Assembly (NCBI GenBank): GCA_964418775.1
Contig: CAYQNA010000001.1
Span: 446 to 64,445, forward strand
Source of the DNA: an uncultured Gammaproteobacteria bacterium
Lineage (GTDB): Bacteria > Patescibacteriota > Patescibacteriia > Magasanikbacterales > UBA922
Direction: 5' to 3'
Length of the DNA: 64,000 nt
The notes below the pieces were generated by a model, which made no database searches, had not been told where the DNA came from, and saw only the letters and a program-made list of their open reading frames with translations. Position numbers and translations under genes: made by a program. Of this stretch, positions 8,308 to 54,924 are shown one piece after another. How positions within the stretch are numbered: position 1 is the stretch's first letter; each line of letters opens with the position of its first letter.

Positions 8308-8380
8308 GGGCCGGTAGCTCATTTGGTAGAGCATCGCGTTTGCATCGCGAGGGTGGGGGGTTCGAATCCTCTCCGGTCCA
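8308..8380 (+). tRNA. tRNA-Ala (anticodon TGC)
   Basis: Cloverleaf with a G3:U70 identity pair, anticodon loop TTTGCAT and T-loop GGTTCGAATCC. CCA is not encoded. Confidence 0.8.
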
Positions 8381-8396
8381 CAACGGCAGTGCATAG

Positions 8397-8468
8397 GCCG
8401 TGGTAGCTCAGTGGTAGAGCAGAGGCCTGAAGAGCCTTGTGTCGCCAGTTCGATCCTGGCCCGCGGCA
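8397..8468 (+). tRNA. tRNA-Phe (anticodon GAA)
   Basis: Acceptor GCCGTGG/CCGCGGC, anticodon loop CTGAAGA, T-loop AGTTCGATCC. Confidence 0.8.
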
Positions 8469-8476
8469 CAATTTAG

Positions 8477-8550
8477 CGGGGTGTAGCTCAGTTGGCTAGA
8501 GCGACTGGTTTGGGACCAGTAGGTCGCACGTTCAAGTCGTGTCACCCCGA
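8477..8550 (+). tRNA. tRNA-Pro (anticodon TGG)
   Basis: C1:G72 acceptor (CGGGGTG/CACCCCG) typical of bacterial tRNA-Pro. Anticodon loop TTTGGGA. Confidence 0.75.
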
Positions 8551-8627
8551 CAATGTAATTAAAAAATCCCGAACAGGATTTTTTGTTTTATCTTAGTGTG
8601 GTACAATTTTGGTATACAATCTTTCTT

Positions 8628-15022: not shown

Positions 15023-15085
15023 TGTCTGCCATACAGTATAGGTTGTTTAAACCTATCTGATTGAAGAGGCCGGTATTGCCTCTTG

Positions 15086-15159
15086 AGCGGTAGACCAGAT
15101 TCGAACTGGCGACCTTCTCCTTGGCAAGGAGACGTTCTAGCCAACTGAACTACTACCGC
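15086..15159 (-). tRNA. tRNA-Gly (anticodon GCC)
   Basis: Reverse complement folds as GCGGTAG…; anticodon loop TTGCCAA, T-loop GGTTCGAATC. Confidence 0.8.
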
Positions 15160-15257
15160 GCGGGCTAGTATGGTAAGCCTGCGCGTTCCGCGACAAGACT
15201 TAGTATAGCATAGGTGCGAATTGACCGCAAAGGATTATCCACGGTCTATCCACACTT

Positions 15258-15331
15258 GTTGCGGGGGCCGGATTTGAACCGGCGACCTTTGGGTTATGGG
15301 CCCAACGAGCTGCCTGGCTGCTCTACCCCGC
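15258..15331 (-). tRNA. tRNA-Met (anticodon CAT), initiator-like
   Basis: Anticodon loop CCCATAA with three consecutive G:C pairs in the anticodon stem and an unpaired 1:72 position (A·A), both hallmarks of initiator tRNA. Confidence 0.7.
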
Positions 15332-15551
15332 TGTCGACCCCGATGGGGCAATGGGAGGAGTATATAGTATCTGCGGTTTTTTTTCAAGGGGGCAAGCTCC
15401 CAACGGAGTGATTTATGGTTTTTTATCTAAATTAAGGCAAAAAACAGTGTAAATACAATGACCGCCACTGCCCAGGAAACAGCAGGTGTTTACTAAGCAG
15501 TCGGACGGTCATTGGCGGCCATGATCGTTCGACGCCCCGCAGGAGTGCGGG

Positions 15552-18567: not shown

Positions 18568-20334
18568 ATGCATAACAAGGAACAACTTTTGGCCGAGGCG
18601 CGGGAGCGTGTAGCGCAGGTGCGGGCCGCGATCGAGGAGGCGGTGGTGCGCAAGGGTGAGCAGTCTGTGACCTTGCGACACCAGGCGCGCACGATTGGGA
18701 CGAGCGATGCGTTTGCGTACGCACGTTTGTCCGCGCATTATCACGAGCAAACTAAAGGCCTGGCTGATTTGGCGCCAGCGCCGTATTTTGCGCGCTGTGA
18801 TTTTGGCGAGGTCGGGCGCGAAAAGGCGTATTATATTGGTAAATTTTCATTTACGGAGCAGGACATCTATTCGTGGGTTACGCCAGTGGCGCGACTGCGG
18901 TTTGAAAACCCGGGAGCAGCCGAGTACACGCGTTTGGATGGGGAAGTGCGGCGCGGAAATTTGGCGCGCAAAGACAGTTATTTGATTGTTGATGGGGCGA
19001 TTAAATTTTTTGCGACCGAAGCCGTGGGCACGCCACGCGAATTGATTTATCAGGAACATTTTACGCGCCAAAAAAGTGATTTTGTGTTGCCCGAGATTGT
19101 GGCGCTCATGGAAAAGGCACAGGACCAAGTGATCCGTGCCGATTGGCGCGGGCCATTTGTGATTAGTGGGCCGGCCGGGTCGGGCAAGACCACGCTGGCG
19201 CTGCACCGCATTGCCTATTTGTTGCAATCACCAGACACAGCGGAGTATTTTTCACCACAGGAAATTTTGGTGCTTGTGCAAGACGCGGGTAGTCGTGATT
19301 ATTTTGCGCGCTTGTTACCAGATTTGGGTATTAGCGGCGTGCACATTCAAACGTTTAGTGATTGGGCCGCGCATATTTTAGAATTAAAGAATTGGCAATT
19401 GGCTGATGAAGATTATAGCGAGGAGGCGTTGCAGTATGCGCACGCAAAATTATTGGCGTTGCGTGATTTGCCAGAAATAAAACACACGACGCAGATTTTT
19501 AAAACTTTAGAAACCGTGTATGGTAATTATTTTTCAGATGCGCAAAAGGAACAACTGCGCGAACAAAAACGCTTGAAAACATTGGATAAAATTGACCTCA
19601 CGGTTTTGCTTGCAATTTTTAAACAAACATATGGCGCGCTCACGGCCACTCAAGAATATTGGCAGGAATTGCAGCGCGGAGGGTATCGCAAGAAAACAGA
19701 CCGCTGGACTTTAAAATATAATTTAATGGTTATCGACGAATTTCAAAACTATTTGCCCGAGCAAGTGGCGCTGTTGAAAAGCACGCTGAATCCGCGCGTG
19801 CAATCCATGGTGTATGTGGGGGACTTGGGGCAGCAAACGCGGCTCGGGACCATGCAAGATTGGCAGAGTATTGACGAGGCAATTCCAGCCGAGCGTATTG
19901 TGCGCTTGCAAAAAGTGTATCGCAACACGCGGCAGATTTTGGAATATGTGCGTGGGCGTGGGTATACGGTGGATATTCCCGCGCAAGTAAAAGATGGTCC
20001 AAAAGTTGAAGAAGTAAAAGTGCAATCAGCAACTGACGAAATTGCGCATATTGAAAAAACGCGGGAGCCAAACGCCTTTGTTGGTGTGCTGGCCATGAAT
20101 CGCCATTATTTAATTGCGTTCAAAAAACATTTTGCAGGAAACAAAAATGTAAAATGCTTGTCGTTTGTCGAAGCCCAAGGTTTGGAATTTGATGAAGTCT
20201 ATATTGTGGGCGGGCGCGAGGCAGTCATGCCAGAGTTGCCGGGCACGTTAGGGGATGAAGTGCGCAAAATTTACCGCGATTTGGAATATGTGGCCCTGAC
20301 GCGTGCAATGAATCGACTGACAGTATTTACCTAA
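18568..20334 (+). CDS. UvrD/HelD-like superfamily-1 DNA helicase
   Basis: Walker A ISGPAGSGKTTLALHRIAYLL, a DEx-like MVIDEFQNY and C-terminal SF1 motifs (VYRNTRQI, EAQGLEFDEVYIVG). Confidence 0.6.
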   Translation: MHNKEQLLAEARERVAQVRAAIEEAVVRKGEQSVTLRHQARTIGTSDAFAYARLSAHYHEQTKGLADLAPAPYFARCDFGEVGREKAYYIGKFSFTEQDIYSWVTPVARLRFENPGAAEYTRLDGEVRRGNLARKDSYLIVDGAIKFFATEAVGTPRELIYQEHFTRQKSDFVLPEIVALMEKAQDQVIRADWRGPFVISGPAGSGKTTLALHRIAYLLQSPDTAEYFSPQEILVLVQDAGSRDYFARLLPDLGISGVHIQTFSDWAAHILELKNWQLADEDYSEEALQYAHAKLLALRDLPEIKHTTQIFKTLETVYGNYFSDAQKEQLREQKRLKTLDKIDLTVLLAIFKQTYGALTATQEYWQELQRGGYRKKTDRWTLKYNLMVIDEFQNYLPEQVALLKSTLNPRVQSMVYVGDLGQQTRLGTMQDWQSIDEAIPAERIVRLQKVYRNTRQILEYVRGRGYTVDIPAQVKDGPKVEEVKVQSATDEIAHIEKTREPNAFVGVLAMNRHYLIAFKKHFAGNKNVKCLSFVEAQGLEFDEVYIVGGREAVMPELPGTLGDEVRKIYRDLEYVALTRAMNRLTVFT

Positions 20335-23018: not shown

Positions 23019-23195
23019 AAAAGATATGCTGAGGTATTTTATACTAAGTCTGGTGAAAGTAAAATATAAATTGTGGGGCTCATCCCATTCATTCTGGATT
23101 GCCAGTTAATCATGAGTAGATTAATTACAGGATCACTGCGTGTCCTATCCTAACTAAGGTCATTAATTGTAGATTAGGAACATTTTTTAGGGGTT

Positions 23196-23224
23196 GACAC
23201 TGTTCGTTCGTCAGGTAGACTTAA
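23196..23224 (+). promoter_or_regulatory. σ70-like promoter for the 23.2-25.3 kb cassette
   Basis: TTGACA, a 17-nt spacer, then TAGACT, lying 30 nt upstream of the ATG at 23255 inside a 236-bp AT-rich intergenic gap. Confidence 0.3.
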
Positions 23225-23254
23225 GCCAATTACGTATGATACAAAGTATGAACT

Positions 23255-24322
23255 ATGAAAAAATTTGATAGAAGTGCTCGAAATATGCTTTTTCTCTGGA
23301 AAAAACAGAGGCAAGCTCTTAAAAGACAGAAAAGACGTGTTCTCTATAGAAAAAGACGGAATCGAAGCTTACAGGGGAAACCCTATAGGGTACAAGAGAG
23401 TCTAAAGGGGTATCGAAAAGCAAAAAGGATCAAAGCACCAGAAAATCTTTCATTTCTGGAAAATACAAACGAAGTTGCGGGGTTTGTACATGAGTTAAGC
23501 ACTTCTCTAAAAAATAGGCAGCCAGTATTCGTTGATTTGAGTGAGGTGGCTTCTCTTGATTACGGTGCCATTACGGTTTTATTGTCTGTGATGTATAGGT
23601 TTAAGACAACAAAAATACCGTTTAATGGAAATTTTCCAATTAGGGATGACATTAAATTTAAACTCGTTGATTCTCAGTTTTTTAGGCGTTTAGAGGAAAA
23701 CATTTTTACTGAGCCTGCGTATTTAATTCAAAAAGCAAATCAGATATTCGCAAAAGCCACAAATAAAGTTGTGCCACAATTAGGACAACGTGTCGTAGAA
23801 GAGGCGTCGCAAACCATCTGGGGCAAGAAAAGAGCTTGTAAGGGGATCCCGCGGTTACTCGTAGAGATAATGCAGAATACTCACAACCACGCTATACGAG
23901 GTTCAAAAGGTGGTGCTTACTGGTGGTTATCTGTGAATCATGATACTGTCAATAAGAAAGTTTCCTTTGTCTTTGTGGACTATGGACAAGGAATTTTTGA
24001 AAGCTTGTACAGCAAATGGCCCCTACTATCTTCTTTCAAGAAAAAGGTACTCGGCCCTGACAACGCAACACTTCTTAAAAAACTCCTTGAAGGCGAGGTC
24101 CAAAAGACTGTAACAGGACAATATTTTCGAGGAAAGGGTCTGCCTAATATCATGAAAGTCCTGAAAAGAAATCAGATAAGTAATTTACATATCATAAGTA
24201 ATGATGTATTCGCGGACGTCGCAAAGGATGAGTATTCTACTTTAGAAAAATCTTTTAAAGGCACGTTCTTCCATTGGGAATTGTGCGAAAATAATGAGAA
24301 TGAATTATGGACAATATCTTAA
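23255..24322 (+). CDS. GHKL-superfamily ATPase/kinase (HATPase_c-like) with a highly basic N-terminus and a STAS-like middle segment
   Basis: N-box-like EIMQNTHNHAIRG, G1-box VDYGQGI and G2-box GKGLPNI match the Bergerat fold. Residues 1-60 are ~40% K/R. Residues ~95-125 (PVFVDLSEVASLDYGAITVLLSV) resemble a STAS/anti-σ-antagonist fold. AT-rich codon usage. Confidence 0.45.
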   Translation: MKKFDRSARNMLFLWKKQRQALKRQKRRVLYRKRRNRSLQGKPYRVQESLKGYRKAKRIKAPENLSFLENTNEVAGFVHELSTSLKNRQPVFVDLSEVASLDYGAITVLLSVMYRFKTTKIPFNGNFPIRDDIKFKLVDSQFFRRLEENIFTEPAYLIQKANQIFAKATNKVVPQLGQRVVEEASQTIWGKKRACKGIPRLLVEIMQNTHNHAIRGSKGGAYWWLSVNHDTVNKKVSFVFVDYGQGIFESLYSKWPLLSSFKKKVLGPDNATLLKKLLEGEVQKTVTGQYFRGKGLPNIMKVLKRNQISNLHIISNDVFADVAKDEYSTLEKSFKGTFFHWELCENNENELWTIS

Positions 24323-24639
24323 TCTCTATTGCAGATGATTTTTCAAAAACACCAGGCTCTCGGTACCGGGAAGAAGGCGAGTTTTCAGGAGAAGAATTTC
24401 TTGAGGAAATTCTTGAGCCAAGTTTTGTTAAAGCTCGTGCAGAGGGCAAGCAGTTGGTCGTAGATTTAGATAGAACAGTCGGCTATGGCACTTCTTTTTT
24501 GGAAGAAGTTTTTGGTGGTTTGGCCAGGAAGTATGGTGCAGAAGAAGTCAAATCTCATCTCTCTATAATTTCAGAGGAGGAGAGATATCTTAAAGAGGAT
24601 ATAGAAGAGTATATCAGTGACGCTGGTAGAAAAGGCTGA
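24307..24639 (+). CDS. STAS-like small protein (DUF4325-like)
   Basis: 110 aa; …GEEFLEEILEPSF…GKQLVVDLDRTVGYGTSFLEEVFGGL… follows the STAS-like DUF4325 pattern. Start overlaps the upstream gene by 16 nt, suggesting translational coupling. Confidence 0.4.
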   Translation: MDNILISIADDFSKTPGSRYREEGEFSGEEFLEEILEPSFVKARAEGKQLVVDLDRTVGYGTSFLEEVFGGLARKYGAEEVKSHLSIISEEERYLKEDIEEYISDAGRKG

Positions 24640-24646
24640 TGTTGAG

Positions 24647-25270
24647 ACTATGAAGAAATTTTTTAGTTCAAAATTGCCGCACCTGGTAGCATTTATGGTG
24701 GGAATTATCGTGGGCATCGCCGTGTTTTTGTTAGGCTTATCTCGCTTTTCACTGCGGTTTAGTAATCAAGTTGATCTTCAATTAGATGTTTTTTCGATAG
24801 TTGATTTGTTAGTTACTGTTCTGTTAACTGTGTATGTCGCTGGTAAGCTCACCAGAGATAATGAGCAGGTTCGGATTGAAAAGCAGATCATAATTGAAGA
24901 TCTACATATATTTAAAAAAGATTTTATTAAAAGCATCTCTGGTCTTCTGGGTGGTGGTTCAAAGGTCGGGTTAATATCTGTGACGTCGGAGCTAAAAAGA
25001 CTAAGATCTGATTTTCAGTCCTGGACTGATCTATTGGAGTCCTGGGGTTCCTTGGATGTTAAAACCCTGACAGATAGTGTAGACAGAAGCATCAGGGATA
25101 TAAGAGATTATTTTACTGACACAGCTGTTTCTTCTGCGGACACAACTAAGTCAAAAATTAAGGGAGGGGATATATCCCTTACATCTGATACGCGAACCAA
25201 GATCGAGAGAGAAGTTTTAGAACTAAGAAAAAATATGTTTCAATTGGTAGTGAGAATTAATCGCAATTAA
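24647..25270 (+). CDS. 2-TM membrane protein with a cytoplasmic coiled-coil tail (hypothetical effector/sensor)
   Basis: Two N-terminal hydrophobic helices, then ~130 aa of charged coiled-coil. Start could be 24617 or the ATG at 24647. Confidence 0.4.
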   Translation, partial: TMKKFFSSKLPHLVAFMVGIIVGIAVFLLGLSRFSLRFSNQVDLQLDVFSIVDLLVTVLLTVYVAGKLTRDNEQVRIEKQIIIEDLHIFKKDFIKSISGLLGGGSKVGLISVTSELKRLRSDFQSWTDLLESWGSLDVKTLTDSVDRSIRDIRDYFTDTAVSSADTTKSKIKGGDISLTSDTRTKIEREVLELRKNMFQLVVRINRN

Positions 25271-25292
25271 TTTTGATCCATATTAAATCAAT

Positions 25293-25321
25293 AAAAAACG
25301 AGCCTCGCGGCCCGTTTTTAA
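25293..25321. terminator. Bidirectional intrinsic terminator between convergent genes
   Basis: AAAAACGaGCC-tcgc-GGCcCGTTTTT is a GC stem flanked by an A-run and a T-run. Confidence 0.55.
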
Positions 25322-25322
25322 T

Positions 25323-25751
25323 TTATTGATTTTGTTGTGGAGGATTTGCAGGTGGCGCTGGAGGTGTTGGTGGTATTGGAGGAGCAGGAGGCGTTGGGGG
25401 TGTTGGCGGAGATGGTGGAGTCTGTGGCGCAACTGGCTGTGGTGGCATTGGTACTGGTCGTGATGTTGGTGCTGGCGATGGTCCGCGCCAATCTGGATTC
25501 AAGAGCCCAGTAGGATTATTGTATTTAATGACTACTAAGTAGGTCACAGCCCCAACCAGTGGCGCGAGCATTAGGATTAGCACCCACAAGGCCTTTTCGA
25601 CATTGTTGCGAAAATCGCGACGGGCACAATCCACTAATAGCCACAACCAAAGTGCGACTAGAATGAGTCCAATTACTGGACCCATAAACCAACTAAAATC
25701 AGGTTCATCCATAGTGCGATTGACCATGGACCAGGAATGCATGTATCCCAT
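25323..25751 (-). CDS. PLDc_N-domain membrane protein with a proline-rich C-terminal tail
   Basis: KALWVLILMLAPLVGAVTYLV matches the phospholipase-D-like N-terminal domain. The tail is PxPP repeats. Confidence 0.45.
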   Translation of the reverse strand: MGYMHSWSMVNRTMDEPDFSWFMGPVIGLILVALWLWLLVDCARRDFRNNVEKALWVLILMLAPLVGAVTYLVVIKYNNPTGLLNPDWRGPSPAPTSRPVPMPPQPVAPQTPPSPPTPPTPPAPPIPPTPPAPPANPPQQNQ

Positions 25752-27568: not shown

Positions 27569-27683
27569 ACTTATCAGGTCTTTTTCGTCAACGGTAATTA
27601 AGGTCGCAGCGTAAAAAAGAACATCATAGTATGGTGTTCTTTTTGTAATTGAGAAAGGTGTGTTAAATTGCTATACTGTCCGC

Positions 27684-30038
27684 ATGAATTTGATTCACAA
27701 TAGTTTAATTTTTTTAATAACTGCCGTTACCATAGGCCTTGGCGTTTTATTTTTTTCAGTACAGCAAACACAGGCTGTGGCCGTTTTAAACCAAATATAC
27801 AGCACTAACGTGGTCTCCAGTACGATTGGTAGTACAGCTCGACAGGTACGCGTTGACCCTGCAACGGGCAAGACCTATGTGTTAGGACTTAGTACAACGG
27901 CGTTGGGCGCCATATCCGCAGACGGGTCGTCATTTTATACAATAGCCTACGACGTGTCATTGCCATCGTATACGTCAGTCGATTTCGCTGTCTCCAATAG
28001 TCGATTGTTCATTACCCTGACTGGTGGTTCTGCGTCAGGGGTTTATCGGTATGATATTAGTGGCAGTGCAGCCAATTTTGTGGCAAGCACCACCCTTGCT
28101 GCTGGGGCAACATCAGCAACGTTTGGCGACGGAGTCGTATATATTAGTAAATCAACCGCACTCGTAACCTATGATACTAGTTTAATAAAGATTGCCTCCA
28201 CCACACTGAGTAACGCCCCAAGTAAGATTGCTTATGCCAACGGAAAGTTGTTTTACATGACCTCGGCCGGTAGAATTGCCTGGAACGATTTAACTTCGAT
28301 CGACACTACGATTGCGACTATTGGCGGAAGTAGTATTGTTAAGGGTCTGGCCGCAGCAAATGACGCTAGCGCAGTTTATTTTGCCAGCAGCACATCGATT
28401 AGAAAAATATCATTAACTCTGGGTACTTTGTGGTCAATGCCAACCTCAACGTTGGTTATGGATATGAACACCAGCACAGGGAGAATAACCATAATTAATG
28501 GTGGCGGAGTGGCCTCGTTGTATGATCCAATTAATGCGGTTAGCAGTTTTGCGGTTAGTGCCAGCAGTACCGATGCGATTTTAACCTGGACAACCGGTGT
28601 TTCTGATAGTGACTTTAGGGGTGTCACAATCCGCCGCAGTAGCAGCGGTTATCCTGCAAGTGCGACCGATGGTACAGCGGTAACTTCGACAGCCACAGTT
28701 ACCAGCTTCACAGACGGCGGTTTAAGCGACGGTACCTATTATTATAGTATTTTTAATCAAACTACAGACGGGTATTACAGCAGTGCGGTAACCAGTTCGG
28801 TTACGATCGATACGACAGCACCATCTGCACCAACTTTGGCCGCAGAGGTTAGTGGTGGCACGGGTGTGAGTTTATCGTGGGACTCGCCAGCAACCACGGC
28901 GTCGTTTGTGTTGCGCCGCAGCACAGACACATACCCAACCTCTGTGTCCGATGGTACGACGGTTACATCTACTAGTTCGAGTGTGACCAGTTTTTCTGAC
29001 ACTGGGTTGTCTGATGCCATGTATTATTATAGTATTTTTGCGGCCGACAGCTATGGCAATTATTCGAGCGCGGGCACAGCGAGTGTGACAATTGATACGA
29101 CCGCGCCAAACGCTCCAACCTTGAGTGCGAGTGCAACTGGCAGTACAGTTAATTTGTCCTGGGACTCGCCAGCGACCACAGCATCGTTTGTGTTGCGGCG
29201 CAGTGCGAGTGGATTTCCTAGTTCAATTTCAGATGGTTCGGCAGTTACGTCGACAACTGAAACAAGTTTTTCTCAATCAAGTTTATCTGACGGCGTGTAC
29301 TACTACAGCATTTTTGCGGCTGATAGCCTGAGCAATTATTCAACAGCCGGAACAGCGAGTGTGACGGTTGATACTGCGGTCCGGTCAACACCGAGCAGTG
29401 GTGGCGGGGGAGCAGCGGCGGTTGTGCCTTCCGCTGCTTCGGTTGCGGCACCGCTGAGTTTTGGAATTATGAAAAGTTCGTCGCCAACAATTGGTTTACA
29501 ATTAAATGCGAATCCGGCCACTGTGCGCGGGTATGCGGTTTCGATCGACCCCACATTCAAAGACGCGAGCATTCAACCATTAAATTCCATCACAAACACG
29601 ACCATCACTTTGCCCAATAAATCCGGGGTTTATACTGTGTATTTAAAATATTTCTCGGTCACTGGGCAAGCTTCGGAAGTTTTCTCGCAAACCATAACTT
29701 ACACTGCGTCAAGCAGTGTGGGTACAACTAATAGTGCTCCAATCAATGTGAATGTTCCATCGGCTCCTAATACATTCAAGCGCACACTGCAACTCGGCAG
29801 CCAGGGGAATGATGTCAAAGCTTTACAACAATTTTTGAATACAAATGGTTACACGGTTGCACAATCTGGTGCCGGCTCGCCAGGCAAAGAGAGTACTGTC
29901 TATGGTCCAGCCACAGCCAAAGCCGTCACCAAATTCCAGGAAGTCAATGCCGTCAAAATTCTCCAACCACTCGGACTCAAAAAAGGCACTGGCGTGTTCG
30001 GCAGTGCGACAATAAAAGCGTTGAGTTCAATTATCTAG
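27684..30038 (+). CDS. Secreted protein with three tandem Fn3-like repeats and a C-terminal peptidoglycan-binding (PG_binding_1) domain
   Basis: Signal/TM, a Ser/Thr-rich β-region, three 95-aa repeats (…LSWDSPATTASFVLRRS…YYYSIFA…), and a C-terminus LQLGSQGNDVKALQQFLNTNGY…AVTKFQ matching PG-binding domain 1. Confidence 0.55.
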   Translation: MNLIHNSLIFLITAVTIGLGVLFFSVQQTQAVAVLNQIYSTNVVSSTIGSTARQVRVDPATGKTYVLGLSTTALGAISADGSSFYTIAYDVSLPSYTSVDFAVSNSRLFITLTGGSASGVYRYDISGSAANFVASTTLAAGATSATFGDGVVYISKSTALVTYDTSLIKIASTTLSNAPSKIAYANGKLFYMTSAGRIAWNDLTSIDTTIATIGGSSIVKGLAAANDASAVYFASSTSIRKISLTLGTLWSMPTSTLVMDMNTSTGRITIINGGGVASLYDPINAVSSFAVSASSTDAILTWTTGVSDSDFRGVTIRRSSSGYPASATDGTAVTSTATVTSFTDGGLSDGTYYYSIFNQTTDGYYSSAVTSSVTIDTTAPSAPTLAAEVSGGTGVSLSWDSPATTASFVLRRSTDTYPTSVSDGTTVTSTSSSVTSFSDTGLSDAMYYYSIFAADSYGNYSSAGTASVTIDTTAPNAPTLSASATGSTVNLSWDSPATTASFVLRRSASGFPSSISDGSAVTSTTETSFSQSSLSDGVYYYSIFAADSLSNYSTAGTASVTVDTAVRSTPSSGGGGAAAVVPSAASVAAPLSFGIMKSSSPTIGLQLNANPATVRGYAVSIDPTFKDASIQPLNSITNTTITLPNKSGVYTVYLKYFSVTGQASEVFSQTITYTASSSVGTTNSAPINVNVPSAPNTFKRTLQLGSQGNDVKALQQFLNTNGYTVAQSGAGSPGKESTVYGPATAKAVTKFQEVNAVKILQPLGLKKGTGVFGSATIKALSSII
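28541..29390 (+). repeat. Three tandem ~285-bp direct repeats (intragenic, encoding the Fn3-like modules)
   Basis: Near-identical stretches such as tcgtgggactcgccagcaaccacggcgtcgtttgtgttgcgccgcagc (≈28.88 kb) and tcctgggactcgccagcgaccacagcatcgtttgtgttgcggcgcagt (≈29.16 kb). Confidence 0.6.
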
Positions 30039-30620: not shown

Positions 30621-30656
30621 AATATATCAGCCTTGAAGATAGCCTTATTTTCTCTG

Positions 30657-30728
30657 AGCGGGTAGCGGGAGTCGAACCCGCGTCATCAGTTTGGAAAACT
30701 GACATAATAGCCGTTATACGATACCCGC
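30657..30728 (-). tRNA. tRNA-Trp (anticodon CCA)
   Basis: Reverse complement GCGGGTA…TACCCGC; anticodon loop TTTCCAA, T-loop GGTTCGACTCC. Confidence 0.75.
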
Positions 30729-54829: not shown

Positions 54830-54912
54830 GCCGCGATGGCGAAATGGTATACGCTAGGGACTTAAAATCCCTCGTCCGTAAGGGCATGCGGGTTCGAGTC
54901 CCGCTCGCGGCA
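54830..54912 (+). tRNA. tRNA-Leu (anticodon TAA)
   Basis: Anticodon loop CTTAAAA, long variable arm, T-loop GGTTCGAGTCC. Confidence 0.8.
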
Positions 54913-54924
54913 CTAGGTAGTTTG

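Follow-up and report, generated by a model that had tools for sequence, protein, structure and literature searches.

The 64,000-nucleotide stretch of contig CAYQNA010000001.1 analysed here (the window) carries a cassette of three genes, g1, g2 and g3, which would constitute a kinase-controlled toxin-antitoxin or abortive-infection-type mobile module resembling the VapKSC system, whose PIN nuclease would be replaced here by a membrane effector. We give this reading a probability of roughly 0.55. A preliminary description of the same DNA had pointed to an AT-rich cassette of three co-directional genes, and the listing of open reading frames (ORFs) bears this out, with a trio of co-directional ORFs spanning 23255-25270 in the order g1, g2, g3 (lengths in amino acids, aa):

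23255-24322, plus strand: g1, 355 aa, predicted serine/threonine kinase of the VapK/CapK-like STAS-GHKL type, with a polybasic N-terminal helix.
24307-24639, plus strand: g2, 110 aa, DUF4325 (STAS-like) protein, counterpart of VapS; its first 16 nt are shared with the end of g1.
24650-25270, plus strand: g3, 206 aa (217 aa from the GTG at 24617), membrane protein and presumed effector.

VapKSC is composed of the kinase VapK, the STAS antitoxin VapS and the PIN toxin VapC (Chambers et al, EMBO J 2026; PMC13373217). VapK is a STAS-GHKL protein of 302 aa and VapS a STAS protein of 116 aa with an inhibitory C-terminal helix, which binds the toxin and not the kinase; VapC is neutralised by VapS but not by its S48E mutant, and the vapKSC operon, often found near other defence genes, protects against phage Bas42 (PMC13373217). 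The cassette is laid out like vapKSC, as three genes on one strand in matching order: its first gene encodes a STAS-GHKL kinase homologous to VapK in both domains, and its second a STAS protein of the DUF4325 family, ~110 aa long, that keeps a conserved serine or threonine (S/T) at the equivalent site and a conserved C-terminal helix. The third gene differs, encoding here a protein with two transmembrane (TM) helices, without a PIN match in Pfam or NCBIfam, instead of the PIN nuclease of VapKSC. Judged on its genes, the cassette would be a membrane-protein version of VapKSC, with two homologous parts and without the defining PIN toxin. Such a variant is unmentioned in PMC13373217, and none is described in the literature searched. 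The preliminary description had taken the architecture for an undescribed one; this holds for the membrane-protein variant but not for the kinase plus DUF4325 STAS arrangement, since CapK/CapS and VapKSC were published in 2026.

We compared the two kinase families through profiles made from 234 g1 relatives and 120 VapK relatives, the latter collected by protein search, with the VapK and VapS sequences drawn from the supplementary model file of PMC13373217; a metagenome scan for VapK gave one locus. The two families align by hhalign with Prob 97.8% and E 1.3e-12 over 265 columns, g1 residues 58-346 being collinear with VapK 14-291 over the STAS and GHKL domains, and the hidden Markov model (HMM) of the g2 family aligns VapS S48 with g2 T62. 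Together, the profile-profile match and the S48/T62 alignment indicate remote homology of g1 with VapK and of g2 with VapS. Searches of PDB sequences with g2 and with the g1 profile returned nothing relevant and did not recover the VapS-VapC entry 9Z7O.

The kinase assignment of g1 is based on the following features, where K/R and D/E denote basic and acidic residues:

23255-23425, plus strand: polybasic helix, residues 1-57, with 23 K/R and 2 D/E.
23426-23704, plus strand: internal STAS domain, residues 58-150, which aligns with the VapK STAS domain and is matched by the RsbV, SpoIIAA and SLC26 STAS folds.
23732-24292, plus strand: Bergerat-fold (GHKL) kinase domain of the SpoIIAB/RsbW type, residues 160-346.
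23864-23893, plus strand: N box EIMQNTHNHA, with E204, N208 and H212.
23978-23992, plus strand: G1 box DYGQG, with D242, G244 and G246.
24128-24145, plus strand: G2 box RGKGLP, with R292, G293 and G295.

The N, G1 and G2 boxes and the K/R-rich N-terminus that had been noticed earlier are thus found in g1. In the 234 homologues the boxes are near-invariant: N208, D242, G244, G246, G293 and G295 are each present in 234/234, E204 in 232/234, H212 in 231/234 and R292 in 229/234. The residues predicted to bind Mg and ATP being essentially invariant, the ATP site is, on the evidence of the alignment, intact. Family alignments favour the NCBI start (355 aa) over the Logan start (345 aa).

An AlphaFold2 model of g1, computed from a 71-sequence alignment (pLDDT 82.5, pTM 0.77), displays a long N-terminal helix (residues 8-39) followed by an alpha/beta domain at ~58-150 and a second one at ~160-346. 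The best structural matches in Foldseek are the anti-sigma kinases SpoIIAB (probability 1.0) and RsbW, and a segment of ~45 residues between G1 and G2, partly of low confidence in the model, corresponds to the ATP lid that the preliminary description had proposed to look for. No GHKL match to g1 came from Pfam, NCBIfam or PADLOC scans, so that of the HMM searches proposed at the same time the one with g2 found its family (see below), whereas Pfam GHKL models miss g1, yet its fold and motifs are present. The internal STAS stretch, also noticed earlier, is likewise weak by Pfam (residues 74-121; STAS_2, E 9.5e-4, below gathering) and is clear by its predicted fold. The polybasic segment is kept across the family in composition and not in sequence, with a mean length of 54 aa and a net charge of +17. 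A MORC/Hsp90-type GHKL ATPase was considered and rejected, as the best folds are those of anti-sigma serine kinases; it is also disfavoured by the conserved S/T on the substrate-like STAS protein and by the homology with VapK. Among PHROGs, g1 matches phrog_3364, a family of unknown function (E 1.4e-35).

The second protein is assigned by Pfam: g2 matches DUF4325 (PF14213) with E 3.9e-14 and 52.5 bits against a gathering cut-off of 23, in line with the STAS-like/DUF4325 assignment made in the preliminary description. VapS is itself a DUF4325 protein (E 2.7e-17), both proteins lying above the Pfam gathering threshold, and this fits the coupling of PIN.4 VapC genes with DUF4325 genes (PMC5499597). 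The candidate phosphorylation site is:

24490-24495, plus strand: T62-S63 codons of g2, T62 aligning with the VapS phospho-acceptor S48.

Across 81 homologues the T62 position is T in 74/81 and S in 7/81 (S/T in 81/81), and S63 is found in 81/81, being one of the invariant residues together with R19, G24, G59, F69, G70 and L72. The C-terminal segment is also conserved, with S89, Y102 and A106 kept at 86-95% in the same homologues. In PHROGs, g2 has its match in phrog_5816, a family of 441 aa, over the last 100 residues; DUF4325 is therefore also fused to larger phage proteins.

The third protein, g3, gave only itself in a single-sequence database search, and its homologues were gathered through synteny and iterative HMMs. 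Their alignment favours the ATG at 24650 (206 aa) over the GTG at 24617 (217 aa); the public calls are of 191 aa from M27 (NCBI) versus 217 aa (Logan/ENA), and the call from M27 is disfavoured because it would cut away half of TM helix 1. The features recognised in g3, with residues in the 217-aa numbering, are:

24683-24739, plus strand: TM helix 1, LVAFMVGIIVGIAVFLLGL, which holds the near-invariant glycine G33.
24788-24844, plus strand: TM helix 2, VFSIVDLLVTVLLTVYVAG.
25115-25117, plus strand: Thr167 codon, invariant in 80/80 aligned homologues.

Of 61 homologues, 54 keep the pair of hydrophobic helices. TM1 is preceded and TM2 followed by K/R residues, and the loop between the helices is only ~12 residues long, which points to a hairpin with both termini inside and a cytoplasmic domain of ~140 aa. 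The C-terminal part comprises four further helices in an all-helical single-sequence model of low confidence (pLDDT 61); of the two traits proposed for g3 in the preliminary description, the two TM helices are retained and the long coiled-coil is not established by this model. Identity across the family is 13-27%, the exceptions to this poor conservation being one TM1 glycine and Thr167; this threonine may serve as a further phosphorylation site or make a key contact.

Small TM-helix effectors, among them the 2-TM ones of CBASS and retrons, are known from abortive-infection systems. Like them, g3 is short, has a TM hairpin at its N-terminus, is the product of the last gene of a defence-type operon and is poorly conserved in sequence; it differs from them by its ~140-aa cytoplasmic helical domain with an invariant threonine and by the lack of similarity to any family in PADLOC, Pfam or PHROGs. 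To our knowledge, no membrane effector under the control of a kinase/STAS pair has been described. The toxicity of g3 is assumed here by analogy.

We then consider how far the trio is conserved as a unit. The profile search of the g1 family gave 777 clusters (50% identity) at E <= 1e-30 and 2837 at E <= 1e-3. In a sample of 87 loci taken from genomes and metagenomes, a g2 homologue lies directly after g1 in 87/87, and in every locus with enough sequence beyond g2 (86/86) a g3 homologue comes next, the remaining locus ending 733 bp past g1; the self-contained character of the module, proposed earlier, is thus supported by strict synteny. The 80 species-representative genomes, tallied by host from the record titles, belong to Bacteroidota (56), Patescibacteria (8), Verrucomicrobiota (5) and Gammaproteobacteria (4), with one each from Burkholderiales, Nitrospiraceae, Fibrobacteres, Cloacimonadota, Omnitrophota, Clostridia and one metagenome-assembly record. 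The trio spans about nine phyla and is intact in over 80 bacterial species.

It is also found on plasmid and viral DNA. An intact trio is present in four IMG/VR contigs (2.9 million contigs searched), and one match was obtained in 72,556 plasmids, on Leptospira interrogans plasmid p4 (NZ_CP043897.1; locus L094, 2869-4697). In this diverged trio an ATP-binding protein and a STAS-like protein are accompanied by a TM protein of 166 aa with homology to g3 (pairwise E 1.6e-7); the genes lie directly upstream of an MNT/HepT toxin-antitoxin pair, near ParB. In the Helicobacter prophage BK070146.1 (locus L095, 3115-4689), a remote kinase and a DUF4325 gene are followed by a gene for a 134-aa single-TM protein. 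A remote kinase and a DUF4325 gene are also seen in the Streptococcus phage phiGBSVK-D (locus L096, 2746-4245), followed by a gap and then a CsbD-like gene, beside paratox. The kinase-STAS pair may serve several third genes.

The flanks of the cassette differ between loci, with 154 Pfam families in the 123 nearest ORFs and 133 in the 128 second-nearest. Neighbours at example loci include Shedu SduA_C; MmeI restriction-modification with T5orf172; AlwI restriction-modification with Fic and a transposase; DMP19 with RhuM/Fic; and WYL with a DUF4011 helicase and RtcB. The commonest families (nearest + second-nearest) are ResIII (5+4), HSDR_N (4), N6_Mtase (3+3) and Eco57I (2+3), and other recurrent ones are MmeI_Mtase (2), HsdM_N (2+2), AbiEii (3), AbiH (2), Fic (2+2), RhuM (3), phage integrase (4) and relaxase (2). 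PADLOC identifies type I restriction-modification, AbiE, DISARM DrmD and PDC candidates among the neighbours. No sigma factor and no PP2C/SpoIIE phosphatase family occurs two or more times in the 251 neighbouring ORFs, so the check on gene neighbourhood proposed earlier yields variable contexts and not an operon of the sigma-B type. Overall, these data give qualitative support to a self-contained, mobile module residing in variable contexts rich in defence genes and mobile elements.

In the window itself, the cassette is a solitary low-GC insertion and is horizontally acquired. The GC content of 23019-25325 is 0.380 versus 0.473 for the window (z -4.4), the lowest of any 2.3-kb stretch of the 64 kb (minimum elsewhere 0.411), and the GC content at third codon positions is 0.32-0.36 in the cassette genes against 0.44-0.56 in most neighbours, a small PLDc_N gene being at 0.37; the AT-richness relative to neighbouring genes that had been noticed in the preliminary description is thus quantified.

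From these data we propose the following mechanism. At rest, g2 would bind the cytoplasmic domain of g3 and hold g3 inactive, probably with the conserved C-terminal helix and the STAS face (T62/S63) of g2 as contacts. A cue of infection or stress, probably a nucleic acid, would activate g1, being sensed by the STAS-GHKL groove and/or by the +17 to +21 N-terminal helix; a nucleic-acid cue is plausible in view of this homologous groove and of the charge of the helix. Activated g1 would phosphorylate g2 on T62 (or S63), phospho-g2 would release g3, and g3 would then perturb or depolarise the inner membrane, with growth arrest as the outcome. The switch would run one way: since no phosphatase is encoded, a one-way, abortive-type switch fits better than a reversible partner switch. 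Note that this wiring differs from the one put forward in the preliminary description, in which the STAS protein gates the kinase; the VapKSC precedent, where the effector is held by a STAS protein that is itself the substrate of the kinase, makes the order kinase, STAS protein, effector the likelier one.

Several observations weigh against the VapKSC-like reading. The similarity between g1 and VapK is seen profile-to-profile only, the comparison of g1 with the single VapK sequence being marginal (hhalign E 0.06; HMM 1.8 bits). The aromatic residue that stacks on single-stranded DNA (ssDNA), VapK F54 or CapK W68, aligns with g1 S100, in a loop where the alignment is uncertain; position 100 is F/Y in 59/234 homologues (~25%), and the nearby position 103 (Y103) is Y/H/F in 178/234 (76%). 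This aromatic being poorly kept in the g1 family, the trigger may differ from that of VapK and CapK. g3 has no match to known effector or toxin families in Pfam, NCBIfam, PADLOC or PHROGs. The local flanks are ordinary genes (an epimerase, GSDH, a PLDc_N membrane protein and the DbpA helicase). Lastly, the neighbours surveyed are for the most part unrelated genes of the housekeeping type and the survey has no matched control, so that we treat the support from context as qualitative only. The cassette further differs from VapKSC in that the sequences of the g1 and VapK families resemble each other only remotely, F54 is poorly conserved in the former, g1 has an extra polybasic N-terminal helix of ~55 aa that is absent from VapK, and its centre of gravity is in Bacteroidota and Patescibacteria, compared to enterobacteria and other Proteobacteria for VapKSC.

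A kinase and STAS switch was tied to immunity only in 2026, with the CapKS regulator and the VapKSC PIN toxin-antitoxin, and the cassette suggests a third output for it, a membrane protein. If the VapKSC-like reading is true, g3 would represent a new effector class governed by antitoxin phosphorylation, the modularity of the sensor pair would be supported, and several thousand operons annotated 'hypothetical protein / STAS-like protein / hypothetical protein' would receive a name. The g1/g3 family is large and strictly conserved across many phyla, including gut Bacteroidales and Patescibacteria, groups with few characterised defence systems, and the kinase and presumed effector are recognised by no PADLOC, Pfam or NCBIfam model; PADLOC-DB v2.0.0 gave 0 matches for g1, g2 and g3 at E <= 1. 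A broader proposal, which we advance tentatively and with less confidence, is that of a widespread and uncatalogued abortive-infection system in which the kinase would phosphorylate the STAS antitoxin and so license a membrane-disrupting effector, in response to a cue other than ssDNA, perhaps through the polybasic helix. If this were true, the kinase-STAS pair would be a general immune switch with exchangeable effectors, reaching Bacteroidota and the small-genome Patescibacteria.

Four alternatives were weighed against the VapKSC-like module. SpoIIAB-SpoIIAA and RsbW-RsbV are partner-switching modules (PDB 1TID, 1L0O, 6M36), and the first alternative is that the cassette works in the same manner: g1 would bind and silence g3, as SpoIIAB holds sigma-F, unphosphorylated g2 would compete for g1 and free g3, and g1 would inactivate g2 by phosphorylation, the STAS protein gating the kinase. 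The top structural matches of g1, SpoIIAB and RsbW, speak for it, g1 having the GHKL serine-kinase fold with N, G1 and G2 boxes, and so does g2, whose only domain is of the STAS type and whose acceptor position holds a conserved S/T. We nevertheless regard it as unlikely: a resetting phosphatase of the PP2C/SpoIIE type is not recurrent in the 251 neighbouring ORFs, nor is a sigma factor, the STAS protein of the nearest homologous system binds the toxin and not the kinase, and g3, a membrane protein, has no relation to sigma factors. The cassette departs from SpoIIAB/RsbW also in fusing kinase and STAS domain in one chain, in lacking a sigma-factor target, in having no recurrent PP2C phosphatase in the neighbour survey, and in being mobile, with variable contexts and a membrane protein as third component. 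Within the cassette no sigma factor was found with Pfam, and no PP2C-type phosphatase is present in the window flanks; in the strict form of a sigma-factor partner switch the alternative was rejected, the cassette having neither a sigma factor nor a phosphatase.

In the second alternative, the cassette would serve membrane-stress or envelope signalling, with g3 as sensor or anchor, hence as the input, and with the kinase/STAS pair relaying the signal elsewhere or g1 phosphorylating Thr167 of g3. The conservation of g3, poor save for the TM1 glycine and Thr167 (80/80), is a pattern that suits a phospho-site, g3 matches no toxin family, and the polybasic helix of g1 could bind anionic lipids. 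Against these points, the cassette travels as a unit over about nine phyla, a plasmid and IMG/VR contigs, with unrelated flanks, which makes reliance on a host-specific downstream target unlikely, and g3 is the only output domain encoded. We therefore hold this signalling role to be improbable.

A third alternative keeps the parts and the biochemistry of the VapKSC-like module and changes what it is selected for: the cassette would be an addiction toxin-antitoxin that maintains mobile elements by post-segregational killing and plays no part in phage defence. The copies on the Leptospira plasmid beside MNT/HepT and ParB, on IMG/VR contigs and beside integrases or relaxases are consistent with it, as is the related layout in the Helicobacter prophage. 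Most copies, however, are chromosomal (72,556 plasmids gave one match, 2.9 million IMG/VR contigs gave four), many lie beside restriction-modification and Abi genes and not inside recognisable elements, and the VapKSC precedent protects against phage, so that we give pure addiction a low probability, of about one chance in ten.

The last alternative is a transcriptional regulator pair of the CapK/CapS type controlling an adjoining immune operon. CapK (HTH-STAS-GHKL), activated by ssDNA, phosphorylates CapS (STAS and winged helix-turn-helix, wHTH) on a conserved serine at the start of helix alpha-2, which de-represses the adjoining immune operon, CapKS being regulators of CBASS/Bub/Thoeris operons; ~20% of capKS loci adjoin restriction-modification systems (PMC13373217). 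The cassette shares with it the pairing of a STAS-GHKL kinase with a STAS-domain substrate and a link to defence loci, restriction-modification included, and VapK, to which the g1 family is related by homology, is itself a CapK-like STAS-GHKL kinase, but the alternative is effectively refuted, as g2 (110 aa, DUF4325 alone, no HTH match in Pfam) lacks the repressor wHTH of CapS and any DNA-binding domain, g1 has one long polybasic helix (H8-39) where CapK has an N-terminal HTH, and g3, invariably present, stands alone downstream, followed by a terminator and by genes that vary from locus to locus, whereas CapKS governs the downstream operon.

The boundaries of the VapKSC-like cassette in the window are marked by the following elements:

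23019-23254, no strand: divergent intergenic region, 236 bp, AT-rich, separating a minus-strand epimerase gene from g1.
23194-23221, plus strand: candidate sigma-70-like promoter, TTGACA-16-TAGACT, 33 nt upstream of the g1 ATG.
25294-25319, no strand: GC-rich hairpin with an A-run and a T-run on its flanks, bidirectional intrinsic terminator common to the cassette and the convergent PLDc_N gene.

The upstream gap lies between divergent genes and has the length given in the preliminary description. The promoter placed in it there has both boxes, but with a spacer of 16 nt instead of 17; promoter-like sites in the region are not enriched (9 observed versus 8.0 +/- 3.4 in shuffled sequence), and this promoter is plausible, though without statistical backing. 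The hairpin folds with -14.5 kcal/mol (z -4.4) on one strand and -19.1 kcal/mol (z -5.7) on the other, significant values on both strands, which makes it a credible bidirectional terminator, as had been proposed.

No direct or inverted repeats marking an insertion were found on the cassette flanks, and no tRNA adjoins the cassette, the closest being at 15.3 kb and 30.7 kb. The tRNA genes of the window are a tightly packed cluster at 8308-8551 on the plus strand, tRNA-Ala(TGC), tRNA-Phe(GAA) and tRNA-Pro(TGG), and others at 15085-15332, 30656-30728 and 54830-54913, none of which abuts the cassette. A defence island in the present window was considered and rejected, PADLOC matching only generic helicases (the UvrD-like and DbpA genes). 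The UvrD-like helicase (18568-20334, plus strand, 588 aa) has an N-terminal extension of ~170 aa of unassigned role; its PADLOC matches are weak and generic (GajB, DRT-associated, mad8), and it has no evident partner gene.

Downstream, the PLDc_N gene (25323-25751, minus strand) converges on the cassette and has the terminator in common with it; the encoded membrane protein, of 142 aa, has a C-terminal tail that is strikingly rich in proline (PTPPAPP repeats). Further on, the gene at 27660-30038 (plus strand) encodes a predicted surface protein of 792 aa with an N-terminal TM or signal segment, three tandem repeats of ~95 aa (weak match to the Ig-like family Big_13) and a C-terminal PG_binding_1 domain.

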